Positions 9,212 to 64,000 of a stretch of DNA of 64,000 nt are shown here, piece by piece. The notes under the pieces are model-generated. The model made no database searches, was not told the origin of the DNA, and saw nothing but the letters and a program-made list of their open reading frames with translations. The first letter of the stretch is position 1. Each line of letters starts with the position of its first letter. The position numbers and the translations under genes were made by a program. The stretch is from a virus: the IMG/VR virus record IMGVR_UViG_3300036826_000261, positions 1-64,000 of that record, one strand, 5' to 3'.

Positions 9212-10918
9212 ATGACGCCTCGCAAGCCGAGTACAGAATTTCGTGGTTATAAAAACAACCGTGAGCCGGACCCGTGGTGGAAAGGCGGCGTTGCCAAATC
9301 GCCAAAGGCCGATGCGAAGTCTAGACTGAAGCAGACGCGAGCACGAGCAGCCAAAGCGCGCGAGCGCGCGATGCCCGGCAAGAAGAAGCCGTCCGGCGAT
9401 CAGATCATCGGCTGGATACAGCGAAACTGCTACGTGCCTGAAGGCAAGCTGCTGGGGCAGAACTTTCAGCTCGACGAGTGGCAGAAAGACGAGATCAGGC
9501 GAATTTACGACAACCCGCACGGCACGCGGCGCGCCATCCTGTCGTTTGCGCGCAAGAACGGCAAGACTTCGCTGGCTGCGGTGCTGATGCTGGTCAATCT
9601 GTGCGGCATCTCCGCGATCCCGAACTCTTCGCTGTACTCGGCGGCGCAAAGCCGTGAGCAGGCGGCGCTGATCTTCAATCTGGCTGCCAAGATCGTCCGC
9701 ATGTCGCCGGGTCTGCGCGACGGCGTCACGATCAAGGATTCAACCAAGGAGATGTACTGCCACGAGATCGGCACGCGCTATCGCGCGCTGTCGGCGGAAG
9801 CGTCTACGGCGTTCGGTCTATCCCCGGTTTTCATCGTGCATGACGAGCTGGGGCAGGTTCGCGGGCCGCGCTCGCAACTGTACGAGGCGCTGGAGACCGC
9901 GACCGGCGCGCAGGAGAACCCGCTGTCGATCATCATTTCGACGCAGGCGCCGGCCGACACCGATTTGTTGTCGGTGCTGATCGACGACGCGATCGCCGGC
10001 CACGATCCGCGCGTGATCTGCAAATTGTACACCGCGCCACTGACGGACGATCCGTTTGCCGAGGAGACGATCAAGATCGCCAACCCGGCCTATGGGTCGT
10101 TTCTCAATCCGACCGAAGTCATGGCGATGGCCGACGACGCCAAGCGCATGCCGTCGCGCGAGGCCGAATATCGTAATCTGATTCTGAATCAGCGTGTCGA
10201 AGCAGTCGCGCAGTTCATCGCACCGACGGTGTGGGCGAAGTGCGGCGCGCCGGTCGGCGACATCACCAAGTGTCGCGAAGTCTACGGCGGGCTCGATCTG
10301 TCGGAAGCCAACGATCTCACCGCACTGGTGCTGATCGGCAAGATCGATCAGGTCTGGCACGTCAAGCCATACTTCTGGATGCCGGAAGCCAACATCTTCG
10401 AGCGCGCGAAGACCGATCACGTGCCGTACGATCTATGGCTCAAGCAGGGTTATCTCGAAACGGTGGCCGGCGAAGCGATCACCTACGACGTGATCGCGAC
10501 GCGGGTCTGCGAAATTCTGGCCGAACACCCGGGCTTGCAGAAGATCGCTTTCGATCGCTGGAACTACCCGCAGTTTCGGCCTTGGTTGACGCATCACGGT
10601 TGGACTAATTCAAAGATTGATCAAAAATGGGTCGAGTTTGGCCAAGGTATCCAGAGTATGTCACCGGCTCTGCGCGAGTTGGAAAGCCGGATTCTGCGGC
10701 AGGAGATCGCGCACGGAAATCATCCTGTGCTTAATATGAACGTAGCCAACGCGGTTGTTGAAGGAAACAAAGACGCTGCTTTCACCAAAGATTCTTCGAC
10801 GCGCAAGTTGTCTAAGAAGCGTTCGAATGGCCGCATCGACGGCTTGGTAGCTTTGACAATGGCCATTGGTATCGCGCCGATGGCTGCAAAAGTAGACATC
10901 TCCGCTTTGATAGGGTAA
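9212..10918 (+). CDS. terL: Terminase large subunit
   Basis: ARKNGKT Walker A, IVHDELG Walker B, IIISTQ, GGLDLS, FDRW and RIDG.VA motifs; start chosen at the AAGGA RBS (9371 is an alternative). Confidence 0.95.
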   Translation: MTPRKPSTEFRGYKNNREPDPWWKGGVAKSPKADAKSRLKQTRARAAKARERAMPGKKKPSGDQIIGWIQRNCYVPEGKLLGQNFQLDEWQKDEIRRIYDNPHGTRRAILSFARKNGKTSLAAVLMLVNLCGISAIPNSSLYSAAQSREQAALIFNLAAKIVRMSPGLRDGVTIKDSTKEMYCHEIGTRYRALSAEASTAFGLSPVFIVHDELGQVRGPRSQLYEALETATGAQENPLSIIISTQAPADTDLLSVLIDDAIAGHDPRVICKLYTAPLTDDPFAEETIKIANPAYGSFLNPTEVMAMADDAKRMPSREAEYRNLILNQRVEAVAQFIAPTVWAKCGAPVGDITKCREVYGGLDLSEANDLTALVLIGKIDQVWHVKPYFWMPEANIFERAKTDHVPYDLWLKQGYLETVAGEAITYDVIATRVCEILAEHPGLQKIAFDRWNYPQFRPWLTHHGWTNSKIDQKWVEFGQGIQSMSPALRELESRILRQEIAHGNHPVLNMNVANAVVEGNKDAAFTKDSSTRKLSKKRSNGRIDGLVALTMAIGIAPMAAKVDISALIG

Positions 10919-18859: not shown

Positions 18860-21148
18860 ATGCCGATCAAGCCGCACAAGGGCGAGAGCCAAAGCGATTT
18901 CATGGGTCGCTGCATGCATGAGCTTGGCCAGAGCGACACCGAGCGTCCGCAGGATCAGAAGGTCGCGATCTGCATGAGCGCGTGGCGTGATGCGCATGGC
19001 GGTGAGCCGCCGAAGAAGTCGTGCGATCCGAACGACTATGACGACGATGAGCACGAAGAGTTTATGGCCGATTGTATCGATGAAGGCGGCGACGAAGACG
19101 AATGCGCAATGCGCTGGAACGAGGAACGCGGCGCAAAGCCGCCGGTGCAGCGCGTCGAGCATAAGCCACTGTATCACAAGACCCACAGCGGCACCGTGCA
19201 GGAAATGGAGTTCGTCATGTCTGACGAAACCGTTGATCGCATGGGTGATGTGATCTCGGCGAGCGGCTGGGAGCTGGAGAACTTCCACAAGAATCCGGTT
19301 TGTCTGTTCAATCACAGGGCTGATTTCCCGATCGGCCGATGGAAAAATCTGCGCGCTGAGAAAGGCGCGCTGCGCGGCTATTTGCAACTGGCACCGGAGG
19401 GCACTTCACCGCGGATCGACGAAATTCGACGGTTGGTCGAGGCCGGGATTCTGTGTTCGGTCTCGGTCGGTTTTCATCCGCTTGAAAGTGAGCCGCTCGA
19501 CAAGAAAGCCGGTTCGTTCGGCGGCATGCGTTTTCTTAAGCAGGAATTGATCGAAACTTCGCTGGTCAGCGTGCCGGCGAACCCGAATGCCTTGGCGATT
19601 GCCAAATCGCTGGGGGTCAGCTCCGCAACAATCGACGTCGTCTTCGCCAAGCACGGCAACAGAGAGGACGTCAGGACGCGGGACTTCACTGCCAAGCACG
19701 GCAACACGTCTCATGATCGAAGGGGCAGGATTATGCCCGAAGTTCAACTGTCACAACGCATTATCGATCTGCAGCAGCAGATCGCGAACCTGCAAGAAGG
19801 ATTGCAGGCGCATCTCGATAAGATGGACGACACCAATGTCAGCGATGCTGATATGCAGAAGACCAACGATTACAACGCAAGAATCACGCAGATGCGTAAC
19901 AACCTTGCGGGGTTGATCGAGTCCGAAAAGAATCTCGCCGCGTCGGTGGATTCTGTTGTCGATCAGCGGCGGCAACGCGCGCTGGCGACGACATCGATGA
20001 GCAGAGACCCGGAGATCGTCAGTCCGGCAATTCTCAGGCAGTCGAAAAAGGACTGGGAACCGATCGACTACCTCGTGCACGCAGGTGTTTGCCACGCGCT
20101 GGCGAAAATCTGCGGAACGTCGCCGCACTTCGAGATGACGCGCATCTACGGCAACGACGACGCGCACAAGACGGTGCTCGACTGGACCATGCGCGCAGCC
20201 GCAGCACCGGCCATGACGACGGTGGCCGGCTGGGCGCAGGAGCTGGTGCATCAAATCTACGCTGACATGATGGCGCTGCTGTTGCCGCAGTCGGTGTTTC
20301 CGCGGTTCTCTGCCAAGGGCATGACGCTGAGCTTCGGCAACGCCGGCAAGATTCTGCTGCCGACGCGCTCGGCAACGCCGTCGATCGCCGGCTCGTTCGT
20401 CGGTGAAGGCATGGCGATCCCGGTGCGGCAAGGTGCGTTCACCAGCCAGACCTTCACGCCGAAAAAGATGGGCGTGATCACGACTTGGACTCGCGAGATG
20501 GGCGACCACAGCATTCCCGCGATCGAGGGCGTGCTGCGTGAAGCCATCCAGCAGGACACTGCGATCTCGCTGGATTCGGTTCTACTCGACGCCAATGCGG
20601 CGACCACGATCCGTCCGGCTGGTCTCCTGAACGGTGTCGGTGCGACGACGGCGACGGCCGGCGGCGGTGTTGCGGCGGTGGTCGGCGATATCAAGGCTCT
20701 GCTTGGTTCGCTGGTCACGGCGACTAAGGGCAATGTTCGTTCCCCGGTATGGCTGATGAACCCGGTGGACATGCTGTCGGCCTCGTTGGTGTTTGCCGCC
20801 AACACTGGCACGTTCCCGTTCCGCGACGAGATCGGTCGCGGCACGCTGAACAATATCCCGATCATCGACTCGGCCACGGTGACGGCCAAGACGGTGATCC
20901 TGACCGACGCGGCGGATTTTGTCGTCATGCAAGGCGACAACGTGCGCTTCGACATCTCGGATCAGGCGACGTTGCACATGGAAGACACCAATCCGCTCGA
21001 TCTGGTGTCCGGATCGCCCGGTGTCGTGGCGTCGCCGCAGCGCTCGCTGTTCCAGACCGACAGCCTCGCGCTGCGCATGGTCTTCCCGGTGAACTGGGCG
21101 TTCCGCCGCAGCGGCATGGTCAGTTGGACCCAGAATGTGACATGGTAG
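18860..21148 (+). CDS. HK97-type prohead protease-major capsid protein fusion
   Basis: AGGAG RBS; DR.GDVI...GW, NPV.LFNH, SVSVGF and ELIETSLVSVPANP protease motifs; coiled coil, then capsid domain. Confidence 0.93.
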   Translation: MPIKPHKGESQSDFMGRCMHELGQSDTERPQDQKVAICMSAWRDAHGGEPPKKSCDPNDYDDDEHEEFMADCIDEGGDEDECAMRWNEERGAKPPVQRVEHKPLYHKTHSGTVQEMEFVMSDETVDRMGDVISASGWELENFHKNPVCLFNHRADFPIGRWKNLRAEKGALRGYLQLAPEGTSPRIDEIRRLVEAGILCSVSVGFHPLESEPLDKKAGSFGGMRFLKQELIETSLVSVPANPNALAIAKSLGVSSATIDVVFAKHGNREDVRTRDFTAKHGNTSHDRRGRIMPEVQLSQRIIDLQQQIANLQEGLQAHLDKMDDTNVSDADMQKTNDYNARITQMRNNLAGLIESEKNLAASVDSVVDQRRQRALATTSMSRDPEIVSPAILRQSKKDWEPIDYLVHAGVCHALAKICGTSPHFEMTRIYGNDDAHKTVLDWTMRAAAAPAMTTVAGWAQELVHQIYADMMALLLPQSVFPRFSAKGMTLSFGNAGKILLPTRSATPSIAGSFVGEGMAIPVRQGAFTSQTFTPKKMGVITTWTREMGDHSIPAIEGVLREAIQQDTAISLDSVLLDANAATTIRPAGLLNGVGATTATAGGGVAAVVGDIKALLGSLVTATKGNVRSPVWLMNPVDMLSASLVFAANTGTFPFRDEIGRGTLNNIPIIDSATVTAKTVILTDAADFVVMQGDNVRFDISDQATLHMEDTNPLDLVSGSPGVVASPQRSLFQTDSLALRMVFPVNWAFRRSGMVSWTQNVTW

Positions 21149-60443: not shown

Positions 60444-61178
60444 ATGGCGACCATGTCGAAAAAGGCAATCATCACCTGGGAGACCGACGACGGCAGCGGG
60501 CCGCCGGTCGGCATCTGGCCGGAGCCGGGCTATCCGGCGCACCCGATTGCGCCGGGCGGACCGCCGCCGGGCGTGTGGCCGGGACCGGGCTATCCGGCGC
60601 ACCCGATCGTGATTCCGCCGGACAAGCCCGGTGAGCCGCCGACCGTGATCTGGCCGGGGCCGGGCTATCCGGCGCATCCGATCGCGCCGGGCGGACCACC
60701 GCCGGGTTATTGGGGTGGCGTGGCGCCGCCGTTGCCGACACATCCGATCGCACCGGGTGGACCGCCGCCGGGCATCTGGCCGGGGCCGGGCGTGCCGACG
60801 CCGCCGATCCATTATCCGCCGATCATCTGGCCGCAGCCGCCGGAGGGCGGACCGCCGATCGCGATCGATCCGGGACATCCCGAACATCCGATCGTAATTC
60901 CGACACCGCCCGGCACGGTGTGGCCGCCGGATGCATCTATCGAGCATCCGATCGTGCTGCCGCTGCCGCCGGAAATCTGGCCGAAGCCGGGGGTGCCGAC
61001 GCATCCGATCGTGATTCCGCCGGAGCAGCCACCGGAGAAGCCGCAACTGATCACGTGGTATGCCGGCTGGTCGGACAAGACCGGTTGGGTCGTGGTCGGC
61101 GTGCCGAACGTGCCGCATCCGACGCCGTCGAAGGCCGGCGGACCGGGCGGACCGGGCGGGCCGAAGAAAGGGCCATGA
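60444..61178 (+). CDS. Proline-rich repeat protein
   Basis: AGGAG RBS; repeated WPGPGYPAHPI and P.HPIV.P units. Confidence 0.8.
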   Translation: MATMSKKAIITWETDDGSGPPVGIWPEPGYPAHPIAPGGPPPGVWPGPGYPAHPIVIPPDKPGEPPTVIWPGPGYPAHPIAPGGPPPGYWGGVAPPLPTHPIAPGGPPPGIWPGPGVPTPPIHYPPIIWPQPPEGGPPIAIDPGHPEHPIVIPTPPGTVWPPDASIEHPIVLPLPPEIWPKPGVPTHPIVIPPEQPPEKPQLITWYAGWSDKTGWVVVGVPNVPHPTPSKAGGPGGPGGPKKGP

Positions 61179-61257: not shown

Positions 61258-61362
61258 GCCTGCACGATGTTTTTGCCGGCGAAAAATTTTCTTGACTTTT
61301 CGCCAAACCCGTCGCTCGCTTCCCGGATTCGTAAAATCAAAATGCTAAAGGGAGAGAAGCAA

Positions 61363-62241
61363 ATGGCGAAAAAGGCACCCGTCAGTGAAATCATCGAAAT
61401 CCAAGCTATCGAAATGGCGTCGCTGGATTTCCATGTGGTCGGCACCAGCCCGTTCATCATGCATCGCTTCAGTCAGAAGGCGTGGCAGGAATTGCTGCTG
61501 CCGTCGATCCGCGAAAACCGCGCTAGTCTCGAACAGAAGCTCAAGCATGATCCGTATGCAGAATTTCGTGGCGCGTTCTATCGCAACAGCAATCCGCGCG
61601 CCAAGACGGCGTACCATATTCCAAACGGCGCGTTTCACGGCGCGATCGCCAGCGCCGCGCTCGACATGCCGGGTGCCAAGAAGGCGCAGATCGAGCGGTT
61701 GACCAAGATCACCAGCGTCAACATCGAACTGTATGGCATCCCGAAAATCTTTTGCAGCATGGTGCGTAACAGCGACATCTCGCGCACGCCAGATGTGCGC
61801 ACCCGGCCGATCTTCCCGCGCTGGGCGTGCACGGTTTCGGTGCGCTACGCGAAGAACGCGTTGACGGCCAAAGCCGTCGCCAATCTGTTCGGCGCGGCGG
61901 GCGAGATCATCGGCATCGGTGATTGGCGCGGTCAGAAGGGCGGACCGTTCGGCGCGTTCCGCACCAACGTGTCGGTGAACGATAAAGAGTTCAAGAGCAT
62001 CTTGAAGGAAGGCCGCGTCGCGCAATTGAAAGCTTACGACAAACCGTTGTTCTACGATGAAGACACGGAAGAAATTTTAACGTGGTTCGCCACCGAGGTG
62101 CGCCGCCGTGAGTTGGAAGGCAAGATGCGCAGCGATAACGTCAAGGAGTTTCGCGTTATCACCGAGCGCGGCAAGGAGCGCGGCAACGGCGAGTTGGTGA
62201 GCCTTGACGACAAGCGGCGGACCCGTCGAAAGGCCGCGTGA
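61363..62241 (+). CDS. Stand-alone RAMP/Cas7-like RNA-binding effector protein
   Basis: First-strand motif VVGTSPFIMH, helix motif IP..AF.GAI..AA, RPIFPRW and C-terminal Gly-rich loop AGEIIGIGDWRGQKGGPFG.F; GGGAG RBS; adjacent to the GGY-NN array. Confidence 0.8.
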   Translation: MAKKAPVSEIIEIQAIEMASLDFHVVGTSPFIMHRFSQKAWQELLLPSIRENRASLEQKLKHDPYAEFRGAFYRNSNPRAKTAYHIPNGAFHGAIASAALDMPGAKKAQIERLTKITSVNIELYGIPKIFCSMVRNSDISRTPDVRTRPIFPRWACTVSVRYAKNALTAKAVANLFGAAGEIIGIGDWRGQKGGPFGAFRTNVSVNDKEFKSILKEGRVAQLKAYDKPLFYDEDTEEILTWFATEVRRRELEGKMRSDNVKEFRVITERGKERGNGELVSLDDKRRTRRKAA

Positions 62242-62735: not shown

Positions 62736-62740
62736 AGTCA

Positions 62741-62961
62741 TAGGCATGGCAGGCTAGGCAAGGTGCGGCCCGGCCGGAGTAGGTTCGGTGCGGCAAGGCA
62801 GGCATGGCCCGGGAGACGCGGTGAAGCGTGTCCGTGATCTGGTAGCGTCGGGTAAGGCGGCGTTGGATGGGGTGAGGCGAGGCAGGCTTGGTCAGGTCTG
62901 ACGAGACTGGGCGCGGTAGGTTTTGGCGCGGTACGGCAAGGCGTGATGCGGTAAGGCAGGC
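62741..62961 (+). ncRNA. GGY-NN guide array, block 1 (three units)
   Basis: TAGGCATGGCAGGC leader; GGCA delimiters at 62748, 62797, 62881 and 62955; 5-nt periodicity. Confidence 0.85.
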
Positions 62962-63219
62962 ATGGCCAGAAACACAGCGGATAAGGTTCTCGAAAACAAG
63001 TTGCGGCTGATCGCCAAACGGCGGGGTTTGTTTCTTTCGAAATCCCGTCGTCGCGATCCGTTTGCGCTCGACTTTGGTTATGAGTTGAGAGACGCGCAAC
63101 AGCACGTCATCGAAACAGCGTGCAGTCTTACTCGAATCGAAAACTTGTTAGCTCTCGGTCGGACGGGGCGGAAACGTTTAACAGTCGAAGGATGGCGTCA
63201 CATCATCCTTGGTAAGTAG
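62962..63219 (+). CDS. Small basic protein embedded in the guide array
   Basis: KV.EN.LR..A.R.GL.L.KSRRRDP.A.D.G motif; non-repetitive sequence between the two array blocks. Confidence 0.7.
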   Translation: MARNTADKVLENKLRLIAKRRGLFLSKSRRRDPFALDFGYELRDAQQHVIETACSLTRIENLLALGRTGRKRLTVEGWRHIILGK

Positions 63220-64000
63220 GCATGGCAGGCGTGGCCGGGCCGGGTTGTCCCCGGTGTGGCAGAGCATGGCAGCGCAGGGTTGACATGGCAGGGCAGGCAG
63301 GGTCCGTCGTGGTCGCGCGGGATTGGGCGGGGCAAGGCACGGCACGATGCTGGTCTGGCGAGGCGTGGCAGGCATGGCTGGATCAGGCGTGACGAAGCTT
63401 GGTGTAGCTAGGCCGGGTGCAGTGTAGGCATGGCGAGGCAGGCGCGGCGGGACAAGGTCCGATATGGCGTGGCGCGGTCTGGTTCGGTCTGGCCGGGTTT
63501 GGCAGGCAAGGTGCGTCGAGGCCAAACATGGTGTGACAAGGTACGGCGCGGCCTGATCTGGGCTCGACTGGGCAGGCGCGGTGGGTTCTGGCTCGACATG
63601 GTTAGGCGAGGCCCGGTGATGCCCGGCATGTTGAAGTGCGTCCTGGCAGGCGTGGCGGGGGTGCGTGCGAGGCGGGACCGGGCAAGGTCGGGCACGTTAT
63701 ATGGTCTGGCTGGGCACGGCTTGGCGGGTCACGGCAAGGCACGGCCGGCAAGGTTTGTCCGGAACCGGTTTGGCTTGGCGAGATGCGATTAGGCGAGGCG
63801 AAGCGAGGCCGGCTAAGCGTGACTTGGTCGGGTAGACGTGGCCGGGCACGGTAGCGGCGTGGATCGGCCGGCGACGCTAGGCTTGTCGTCGATCGGCATG
63901 ACATGGCGCGGCACGGCGAGGCGTGGTTCGGCCGGCGCGATTAGGTGTGGTCGGAATCGGCATGGCTCGGTGTCGCGTGGTCTGGCGTGGCTCGGCTGGG
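63217..64000 (+). ncRNA. GGY-NN guide array, block 2 (at least 11 units, truncated by the window end)
   Basis: Leader TAGGCATGGCAGGC; GGCA/GGCC delimiters at 63224, 63292, 63367, 63437, 63501, 63571, 63645, 63743, 63807, 63866 and 63930; many units are exactly 4+5n nt. Confidence 0.9.

Follow-up and report, generated by a model that had tools for sequence, protein, structure and literature searches.

A soil myovirus VIPR array carries a guide that matches the Walker A codons of DUF3631-type replication genes

The window analysed here comprises 64,000 nucleotides (nt), positions 1 to 64,000 of the IMG/VR virus record IMGVR_UViG_3300036826_000261. The carrier is a soil myovirus whose genome has 72,692 nt (~72.7 kb) and is rated 98% complete. 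Near the end of the window lies a VIPR (Viral Interference Programmable Repeat) locus, that is, a system for RNA-guided gene silencing of viruses described in preprints of 2026. On the + strand, a vipr gene is followed by a probable vap (vipr-accessory) gene and by a G-rich non-coding array of about 2.4 kb in total, and all genes around the array are on this strand (Table 1). The stretch 63292-63366 falls within the array. It is very probably one guide RNA (vrRNA) of the phage's VIPR system, aimed at the Walker A motif of a DUF3631/RepAM-type replication gene of integrase-bearing elements.

Table 1. Features of the VIPR locus, in positions of the window
Feature	Position	Strand	Basis
vipr gene, 324-aa Cas7-like RAMP protein	61267..62241	+	profile match, predicted fold, G-loop
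probable vap (vipr-accessory) gene, 165 aa	62238..62735	+	synteny in related loci
vrRNA array, first block, GGYNN units, 46% G	62736..62961	+	GGCAGGC junctions at 62748, 62797, 62881, 62955
85-aa open reading frame (ORF) breaking up the array	62962..63219	+	AAGG-N6-ATG start
vrRNA array, main staggered block	63220..64000, on to ~65183 in the genome	+	GGYNN periodicity; next + strand gene starts at 65215
guide core, 11 in-register units	63296..63350	+	22/22 informative bases in 6 metagenome contigs
1-nt slip (T at 63351), then units 12-15 (CT GA GT AG)	63351..63371	+	last unit shares 1 nt with the next guide

The profile of 18 homologues of the 324-amino-acid (aa) protein matches PDB 36pp_D, the 'SUSP1 Vipr protein', with E=2e-5 over ~47 residues. 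The AlphaFold (AF2) model of the protein has a mean pLDDT of 76.7, and its best Foldseek matches are the RAMP proteins Cmr4, Csm3, type VII and Cas7-11, with E values of 1.4e-5 to 1e-3. The glycine-rich loop reads G216-I-G218-D219-W220-R221. In the alignment of the clade, which comprises the same 18 homologues, G216, G218, R221, K224 and G225 are invariant, and D219 is nearly so. By motif likeness, D219-W220-R221 would correspond to D177-W178-R179 of SUSP1 Vipr, residues reported to contact G1, G2 and Y3 (10.64898/2026.04.26.720927). Profile, model and loop together show the minimal RAMP that characterizes VIPR systems, with an RRM core, a glycine-rich loop and a thumb. The protein also matches the PHROG family phrog_4652, which is annotated as of unknown function. 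It is only distantly related to SUSP1 Vipr and is longer, with 324 aa as opposed to ~200 aa; its relatives have 256-309 aa. The N-terminus is ~30 residues longer than in these relatives, and the true start codon may lie further in. Residues 286-324 form a Lys/Arg-rich C-terminal extension of low model confidence.

Searches with the Vipr protein found 21 related loci in IMG/VR. In 20 of them, the gene next downstream of the vipr homologue encodes a homologue of the 165-aa protein, 155-180 aa in length, and the 165-aa protein is probably the product of a vap gene. It matches phrog_15946, likewise annotated as of unknown function, and has no Pfam match. Its AF2 model has a pLDDT of 88.2. Foldseek returned nothing significant for this model, and winged-helix DNA-binding domains make up most of the weak top rows (E 0.27-1). 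Neither Pfam nor PHROG gave a match for the 85-aa ORF inside the array, and the 21 related loci (L002-L022) hold no homologue of it. It may be an accessory specific to this clade or a gene that was inserted there, and it may also stand outside the VIPR system.

The array consists of about 46% G and 23-25% C, with GG repeating at a 5-nt step. The 187 adjacent GG-N3-GG units of the main block give a consensus of GG, then C (71%) or T (17%), then two near-random letters. Within this block (1964 nt), GG is followed by a second GG at +5 in 48% of cases, at +10 in 45% and at +3 in 6%, and mononucleotide shuffles give 22%. In a scan of the whole genome, the G-base (GGY-type) period-5 signal is limited to 62.7-65.1 kb. 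Three weaker period-5 windows, strongest on C, came through the filter as well and lie at 24.9 and 38.0-38.1 kb. The GGY-NN pentamers in non-coding DNA flanking vipr that characterize VIPR are therefore present here, and related loci show them too. In the downstream tract of 16 of the 21 related loci, GG(+5) reaches at least 1.6x the shuffle value. It stays below 1.6x in L013/L015/L016, which are one sequence, and in L019, while L014 ends at the contig end. The G-rich tracts of related loci measure 280-910 nt, and the array here is several times longer.

Every ~60-75 nt the register of the array shifts by -1, where GGCA or GGCC is followed by GGC. The junction GGCAGGC occurs 23 times and GGCCGGC 10 times, with spacings of 63-74 nt within 63224-63645. 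The whole array thus divides into 33 in-phase runs of at least 6 units. This architecture fits the 'staggered' type, whose members overlap by 1 nt, as described in the legend of fig. S18 of 10.64898/2026.04.26.720920; in the array here, one G both closes GGC[A/C]G and opens the following GGY unit, every 60-75 nt. According to the same preprint, only the ribozyme-interspersed and single-vrRNA architectures were confirmed by sequencing of small RNAs (sRNA-seq). The GGC[A/C]GGC junction is the sole recurrent non-pentamer feature noticed in the array. A repeat search of the array returned no invariant 3' tail or pseudoknot, which are traits of VIPR type II. Rfam at E<=10 gave one chance-level sRNA match on the array and no hammerhead or other relevant family. 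By eye, the tract closes with a hairpin and a T-run resembling an intrinsic terminator in L011 and L021.

The placement of the G-rich tract varies among the related loci. A period-5 tract is also found upstream of vipr in some of them (L002, 9451-10115; L022, 326-745), and in L004 one lies between vipr and the vap homologue (9706-10020). SUSP1 is reported to carry one vrRNA upstream of vipr. A coding reading of the array was rejected, as a minus-strand ORF of 270 aa and short + strand ORFs are by-products of the repeat. The 270-aa ORF, rich in Pro and Ala, arises from the C-rich complement at genome positions 64138-64950 (L001 4138-4950), and gene callers could misannotate it as a protein.

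In the published systems, each Vipr protomer binds one GGYNN unit and sequesters GGY, and the NN letters pair with DNA while every third base is skipped (10.64898/2026.04.26.720920; 10.64898/2026.04.26.720927). The skipped base is usually the wobble position of a codon, and the natural targets are described as competing satellites and prophages (10.64898/2026.04.26.720920). The type II members reported there are those of Escherichia phage SUSP1 and a Pseudomonas fulva prophage. Since the 324-aa protein is a Vipr and the NN letters decode under the published code, as set out below, the locus is a VIPR system. It shares with SUSP1 and P. fulva a RAMP with a D-W-R G-loop, a probable small accessory gene alongside, flanking GGY/NN pentamers, a 1-nt skip that falls on the wobble position, a probable target in a mobile competitor, the lack of a self-target, and a phage as the carrier. 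Unlike the four separate vrRNAs of ~100 nt in SUSP1, the array here is continuous and staggered, with ~33 in-phase runs over 2.4 kb. It also differs from type II VIPR in having no invariant 3' tail or pseudoknot, in the 85-aa ORF inside the array, and in its soil myovirus carrier.

The fold resembles that of the Cas7 filaments of class 1 CRISPR-Cas systems (Csm3, Cmr4, Cas7-11), with which it shares the RRM, G-loop and thumb, one protomer per fixed number of guide nucleotides, and periodic base flipping. Cas7 filaments have a 6-nt period with one base flipped, whereas VIPR has a 5-nt period with three bases hidden and non-contiguous guide information. No CRISPR repeats, spacers or other cas genes were noted among the neighbouring ORFs, although no search aimed at these was made.

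A GG every 5 nt with near-random letters between would also suit an RNA binder that forms rings or filaments. The period-5 tract might on that account be a structural or protein-titrating element, such as a G-quadruplex RNA, a TRAP-like wrapping site or a sigma-54 promoter mimic, and not a guide array. This is highly improbable, as the neighbouring protein matches a Vipr of solved structure, the GGY+NN unit is exactly the published one, and only the published skip rule yields a perfect in-frame target. The profile match to SUSP1 Vipr led to the rejection of four early candidates: a TRAP-like RNA wrap, a sigma-54 -24/-12 mimic, a G-quadruplex RNA and a minus-strand rut site.

From 63296, the units of the guide read GGCAG GGTCC GTCGT GGTCG CGCGG GATTG GGCGG GGCAA GGCAC GGCAC GATGC, followed by the extra T and by GGTCT GGCGA GGCGT. 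Positions 4-5 of the units give AG CC GT CG GG TG GG AA AC AC GC and, past the slip, CT GA GT. An earlier note on this DNA had read the same 14 dinucleotides, and all 14 are correct, given the 1-nt slip after unit 11. The bounds drawn in that note, 63292 and 63366, sit at the successive GGCAGGC junctions 63292-63298 and 63367-63373. The staggered reading adds a 15th unit to the guide, GGCAG (AG), at 63367-63371. The dinucleotides had been translated as S-P-V-R-G-C-G-K-T-T-A-L-D-V and set apart from the Walker A motif of the phage's own primase; the latter is GCGNGGNGKGTLL (aa 539-551 of the ORF 39-2471) and does differ.

The 11-unit in-register pattern is matched by 6 metagenome contigs, which hold 3 distinct sequences, at 22/22 informative bases each. 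All six matches are in frame as [L/I]SPVRGCGKTTAL, that is, [L/I]-S-P-V-R-G-C-G-K-T-T-A, with NN at codon positions 1-2 and the skipped base at the wobble position. The 1-nt skip with wobble alignment that characterizes VIPR is therefore found for this one guide. Despite the slip, unit 12 (CT) fits the next codon, Leu (CTN), in five of the six, and there 24/24 informative bases agree. Of the residues decoded earlier, SPVRGCGKTTA is thus present in every match and L in 5/6. Between L065 and L067, all 24 read positions are identical, and 7 of the 12 skipped positions vary. By the earlier note, a lack of hits in P-loop ATPase genes would have spoken against its reading; the 11-unit matches all lie in DUF3631-type P-loop genes.

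The match depends on the published geometry. On 218 kb of target loci, skips of 0, 1, 2 and 3 bases give 17, 22, 15 and 16 of 22 matches, respectively. Pentamer positions other than 4-5 give 16-19 of 22, and a reversed unit order gives 16. Among 1000 unit-order shuffles of the 12 units, the maximum was 20/24, reached once. When all 33 runs of the array were compared with these target loci and with 731 kb of other DNA, which includes the phage's own genome, only this run beat its shuffle null. On the same targets, none of 210 runs decoded from 63 other Vipr loci exceeded the shuffle null by more than 1. The negative results for the other guides say little, because the target DNA searched is small (0.22-0.73 Mb). 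The 12-unit pattern had no match at <=3 mismatches in 5 genomes carrying Vipr prophages, and at <=2 mismatches the 401 genomes searched from one alphaproteobacterial order contained no match to the pattern or to its reversed control.

No self-target is present, as the 731 kb set includes the phage's own genome. With the array masked, none of the 33 runs has a perfect self-match, and their best scores equal their shuffle nulls or differ from them by no more than one match. The guide in question has no self-match among the best matches. Freedom from self-targeting at >=80% NN match is a trait of VIPR systems; scores of 80-92% of NN occur here for a few short runs, and likewise for shuffles of those runs. 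DUF3631 was not detected in the phage's own genome, but the control genomes gave none either, so this negative is uninformative.

Several observations weigh against the guide being directed at this gene family. Four of the 11 matching units lack GGY in the scaffold (GTC, CGC, GAT, GAT), and perturbation of GGY is reported to have abolished silencing in SUSP1 (10.64898/2026.04.26.720920), although the same authors note frequent internal degeneracy of vrRNAs. The site of the full 14-15-unit guide starts SPVRGCGKTTALDV..., and the search with the exact 14-unit pattern, as proposed in the earlier note, came back empty both from IMG/VR and from 185,579 species genomes (one each). The window holds no match to it at <=3 mismatches. 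The 11-unit in-register pattern has no match in IMG/VR either. Units 13-15 fit none of the six matches, and the terminal D-V of the decoding (units 13-14) is matched by no target found; at the protein level, the best fit to the guide among 120 homologues is 13/15 units. Four of the six exact matches are one near-identical sequence, a short ORF beside an autotransporter gene, which is frameshifted in L066. None of the other 32 in-phase runs is above its null on the target loci, unlike in SUSP1, where 18 of 20 guides are reported to converge on one satellite. The number of chance matches for a random 11-12-unit guide in metagenomes, a rough estimate and not a computed value, is 0.01-0.2.

These points could be taken to mean that the array is a VIPR array and the match to the DUF3631 Walker A is a coincidence, with the real target elsewhere or with a decayed guide that has no target. 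The degenerate scaffold together with the 1-nt slip, the unmatched units 13-15, the full pattern without a match anywhere searched, and the absence of another guide converging on the same elements would agree with this. The six matches, moreover, count as a single family-level event, because they are 3 sequences of one gene family. Such a coincidence is nevertheless unlikely in view of the agreement at 24/24 informative bases in 5/6 matches. Every match is in frame, with the skip at the wobble position, and falls on the most conserved motif of a mobile-element gene. Shuffles reached at most 20/24 in 1000 trials, and 0/210 other natural guides were comparable.

The matched ORFs encode homologous P-loop proteins with the Walker B motif LLLDEGDN and a C-terminal DNWR motif. 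Pfam DUF3631 (PF12307) is detected in two of the three, with 91.4 bits in L070 (E 1.1e-25) and 30.1 bits in L069 (E 6.6e-7) at a cut-off of 24; the third, in L067, ends at the contig end before the DUF3631 domain. Among 8000 proteins scored, 817 are homologues of the target at E<=1e-10, and nearly all of the best 120 carry PF12307. The family motifs are SPVRGCGKTT and LL[LI]DE[GA]DN. In an alignment of 26 members, S40, P41, V42, R43, C45, G46 and K47 are invariant. Among the best 120 homologues, SPVRGCGKTTLL occurs 44 times and SPVRGCGKTTAL 22 times. At the nucleotide level, the 12-unit guide fits the Walker A site at >=20/24 in 15 of 27 target loci.

By its domain and motifs, the target gene is assigned to the DUF3631/RepAM family. 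DUF3631 is described as RepAM, the replication initiator of pMEA300-type actinomycete integrative elements (PMC3218068). The likeness extends to the Pfam domain, an adjacent integrase, and a Prim-Pol gene nearby in L077. Unlike actinomycete RepAM, the targets here are soil proteins of ~450 aa of proteobacterial type with a DUF2786-like N-terminus, and their role as initiators is putative. The earlier note had proposed a DUF3631-type primase/helicase. The DUF3631 P-loop protein was borne out, whereas the primase/helicase is the product of a neighbouring gene and not the DUF3631 protein itself.

The contexts of the homologues were examined in 21 IMG/VR loci. A serine or tyrosine integrase adjoins the homologue in L071, L072, L077 and L078, and further neighbours are Prim-Pol, VapE-like, AAA_24 and Arc-like genes. 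The homologues in L071, L077 and L078 score 85-112 bits for PF12307. L071 also carries a terminase large subunit and a ParB-methylase, and the contigs of L072, L077 and L078 hold only an integrase and replication genes. The target contigs are fragments of 1.2-17 kb. A satellite or an integrative element had been named in the earlier note as the home of the target; the integrases beside the homologues agree with the latter in general terms, but a satellite is not distinguished from a prophage or another integrative element.

Two exact-match copies, L066 6114-6859 (-) and L069 617-1255 (+), are short DUF3631 ORFs without the N- and C-terminal parts of the family and lie beside an autotransporter-like gene of ~1480 aa. 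The short copy is probably a decayed chromosomal remnant of an element.

A tentative alternative is that the guide is not directed against a parasite but manipulates a prophage or integrative element resident in the host, for instance by blocking its induction and replication during infection, or that it acts on remnant copies in the chromosome as decoy-like sites. The P. fulva VIPR clade is reported to target resident prophages (10.64898/2026.04.26.720920), and satellites are reported to redirect VIPR to host decoy sites (10.64898/2026.10.15.759431). The truncated copy beside a chromosomal autotransporter gene, which accounts for 4/6 exact matches, would suit such a role, as would the homologues in integrase-bearing elements, one with a terminase. 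This alternative differs in target ecology only from a guide aimed at the replication gene of integrase-bearing elements, and contigs of 1.2-17 kb separate neither a satellite, a prophage nor an ICE-like element.

The steps from the array to an aimed guide are modelled on the VIPR preprints, as regards RNA processing, filament formation, DNA binding and silencing. The vipr - vap - array operon would be transcribed into a G-rich RNA of GGY+NN pentamers, and the staggered array would be cut or bound into vrRNAs of ~12-15 units. By homology with SUSP1, one Vipr protomer would cover each pentamer, hiding GGY and offering NN to DNA, with every third target base skipped. The guide 63296-63350 (or to 63356) matches the coding strand as AGn CCn GTn CGn GGn TGn GGn AAn ACn ACn GCn (CTn). 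Its expected partner would accordingly be the template strand of the Walker A codons of a RepAM/DUF3631 gene carried by a co-resident integrative element, with which it would form a gapped R-loop triplex as in SUSP1. The target gene would then be silenced, and the likely effect would be that replication of the resident or co-infecting competitor element is blocked, to the benefit of the phage. Since all bases that the guide reads are non-wobble bases of the family's most conserved motif, wide coverage of diverged members and hard escape are expected.

A bolder and doubtful extension is that the Walker A vrRNA serves as a broad-spectrum guide, silencing RepAM/DUF3631 initiators across elements of 35-50% protein identity. 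The register would be kept across the 6-nt unit, with filaments tolerating a one-base bulge and non-GGY units. The array of ~33 guides might then be the largest natural VIPR repertoire seen, held as a standing 'immune library'.

The description of VIPR dates from 2026, and the experiments that established its code concerned two type II systems, those of enterobacterial and Pseudomonas phages. The distant soil-phage Vipr clade studied here, with its staggered and tail-less array, provides a natural guide-target pair under the same wobble-aligned 1-nt skip. Since this pair obeys the same skip rule, it lends independent in silico support to the generality of the VIPR code. This locus stands out by the great size of its staggered array, by the ORF embedded in it, and by a guide directed at the most conserved motif in a family of replication initiators. 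In type II VIPR the target is a recombinase or a regulator of lysis and lysogeny, whereas here it is the Walker A motif of a replication initiator. The pair points to a concrete class of VIPR targets, namely replication initiators of integrase-bearing elements, which are hit at the motif that is least mutable. In the two VIPR preprints whose main texts were searched, DUF3631, Walker, primase or ATPase are not mentioned as VIPR targets, and the supplementary data of the VIPR preprints may already cover the clade, its architecture or the target class. One guide and one 35-bp site also make a compact test case for staggered arrays, degenerate units and scaffold bulges.

Contigs from 4 further soil-metagenome runs cover the locus, and a search for RNA runs that contain it found none. 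In two of the soil runs, the guide has the variants 63345 C>T, which turns unit 10 from AC into AT, and 63353 G>A, so that both NN and scaffold letters vary. Within 63450-63560, two guides downstream, numerous substitutions and indels are seen in one run, and the covered part of vipr is unchanged there. The contigs of other soil runs also hold one weakly supported skip of 250 nt, with the joint 63239->63490. The observations suggest that the array turns over faster than vipr, although the evidence is thin and comes from single contigs.

A DNA search for the nearest named phage gave no match. tblastn with Vipr returned distant relatives only, in Gordonia, Mycobacterium and other phages, and the terminase search led to PAJU2 and Klebsiella phages at ~54%. 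Between the lysis genes and the VIPR operon, and directly upstream of the latter, 60444-61178 (+) encodes a 244-aa protein of proline-rich repeats (PGYPAHPI / PGGPPPG). A 762-aa ORF at 18860-21148 (+) matches the PHROGs of both head maturation protease and major head protein and represents a protease-capsid fusion.

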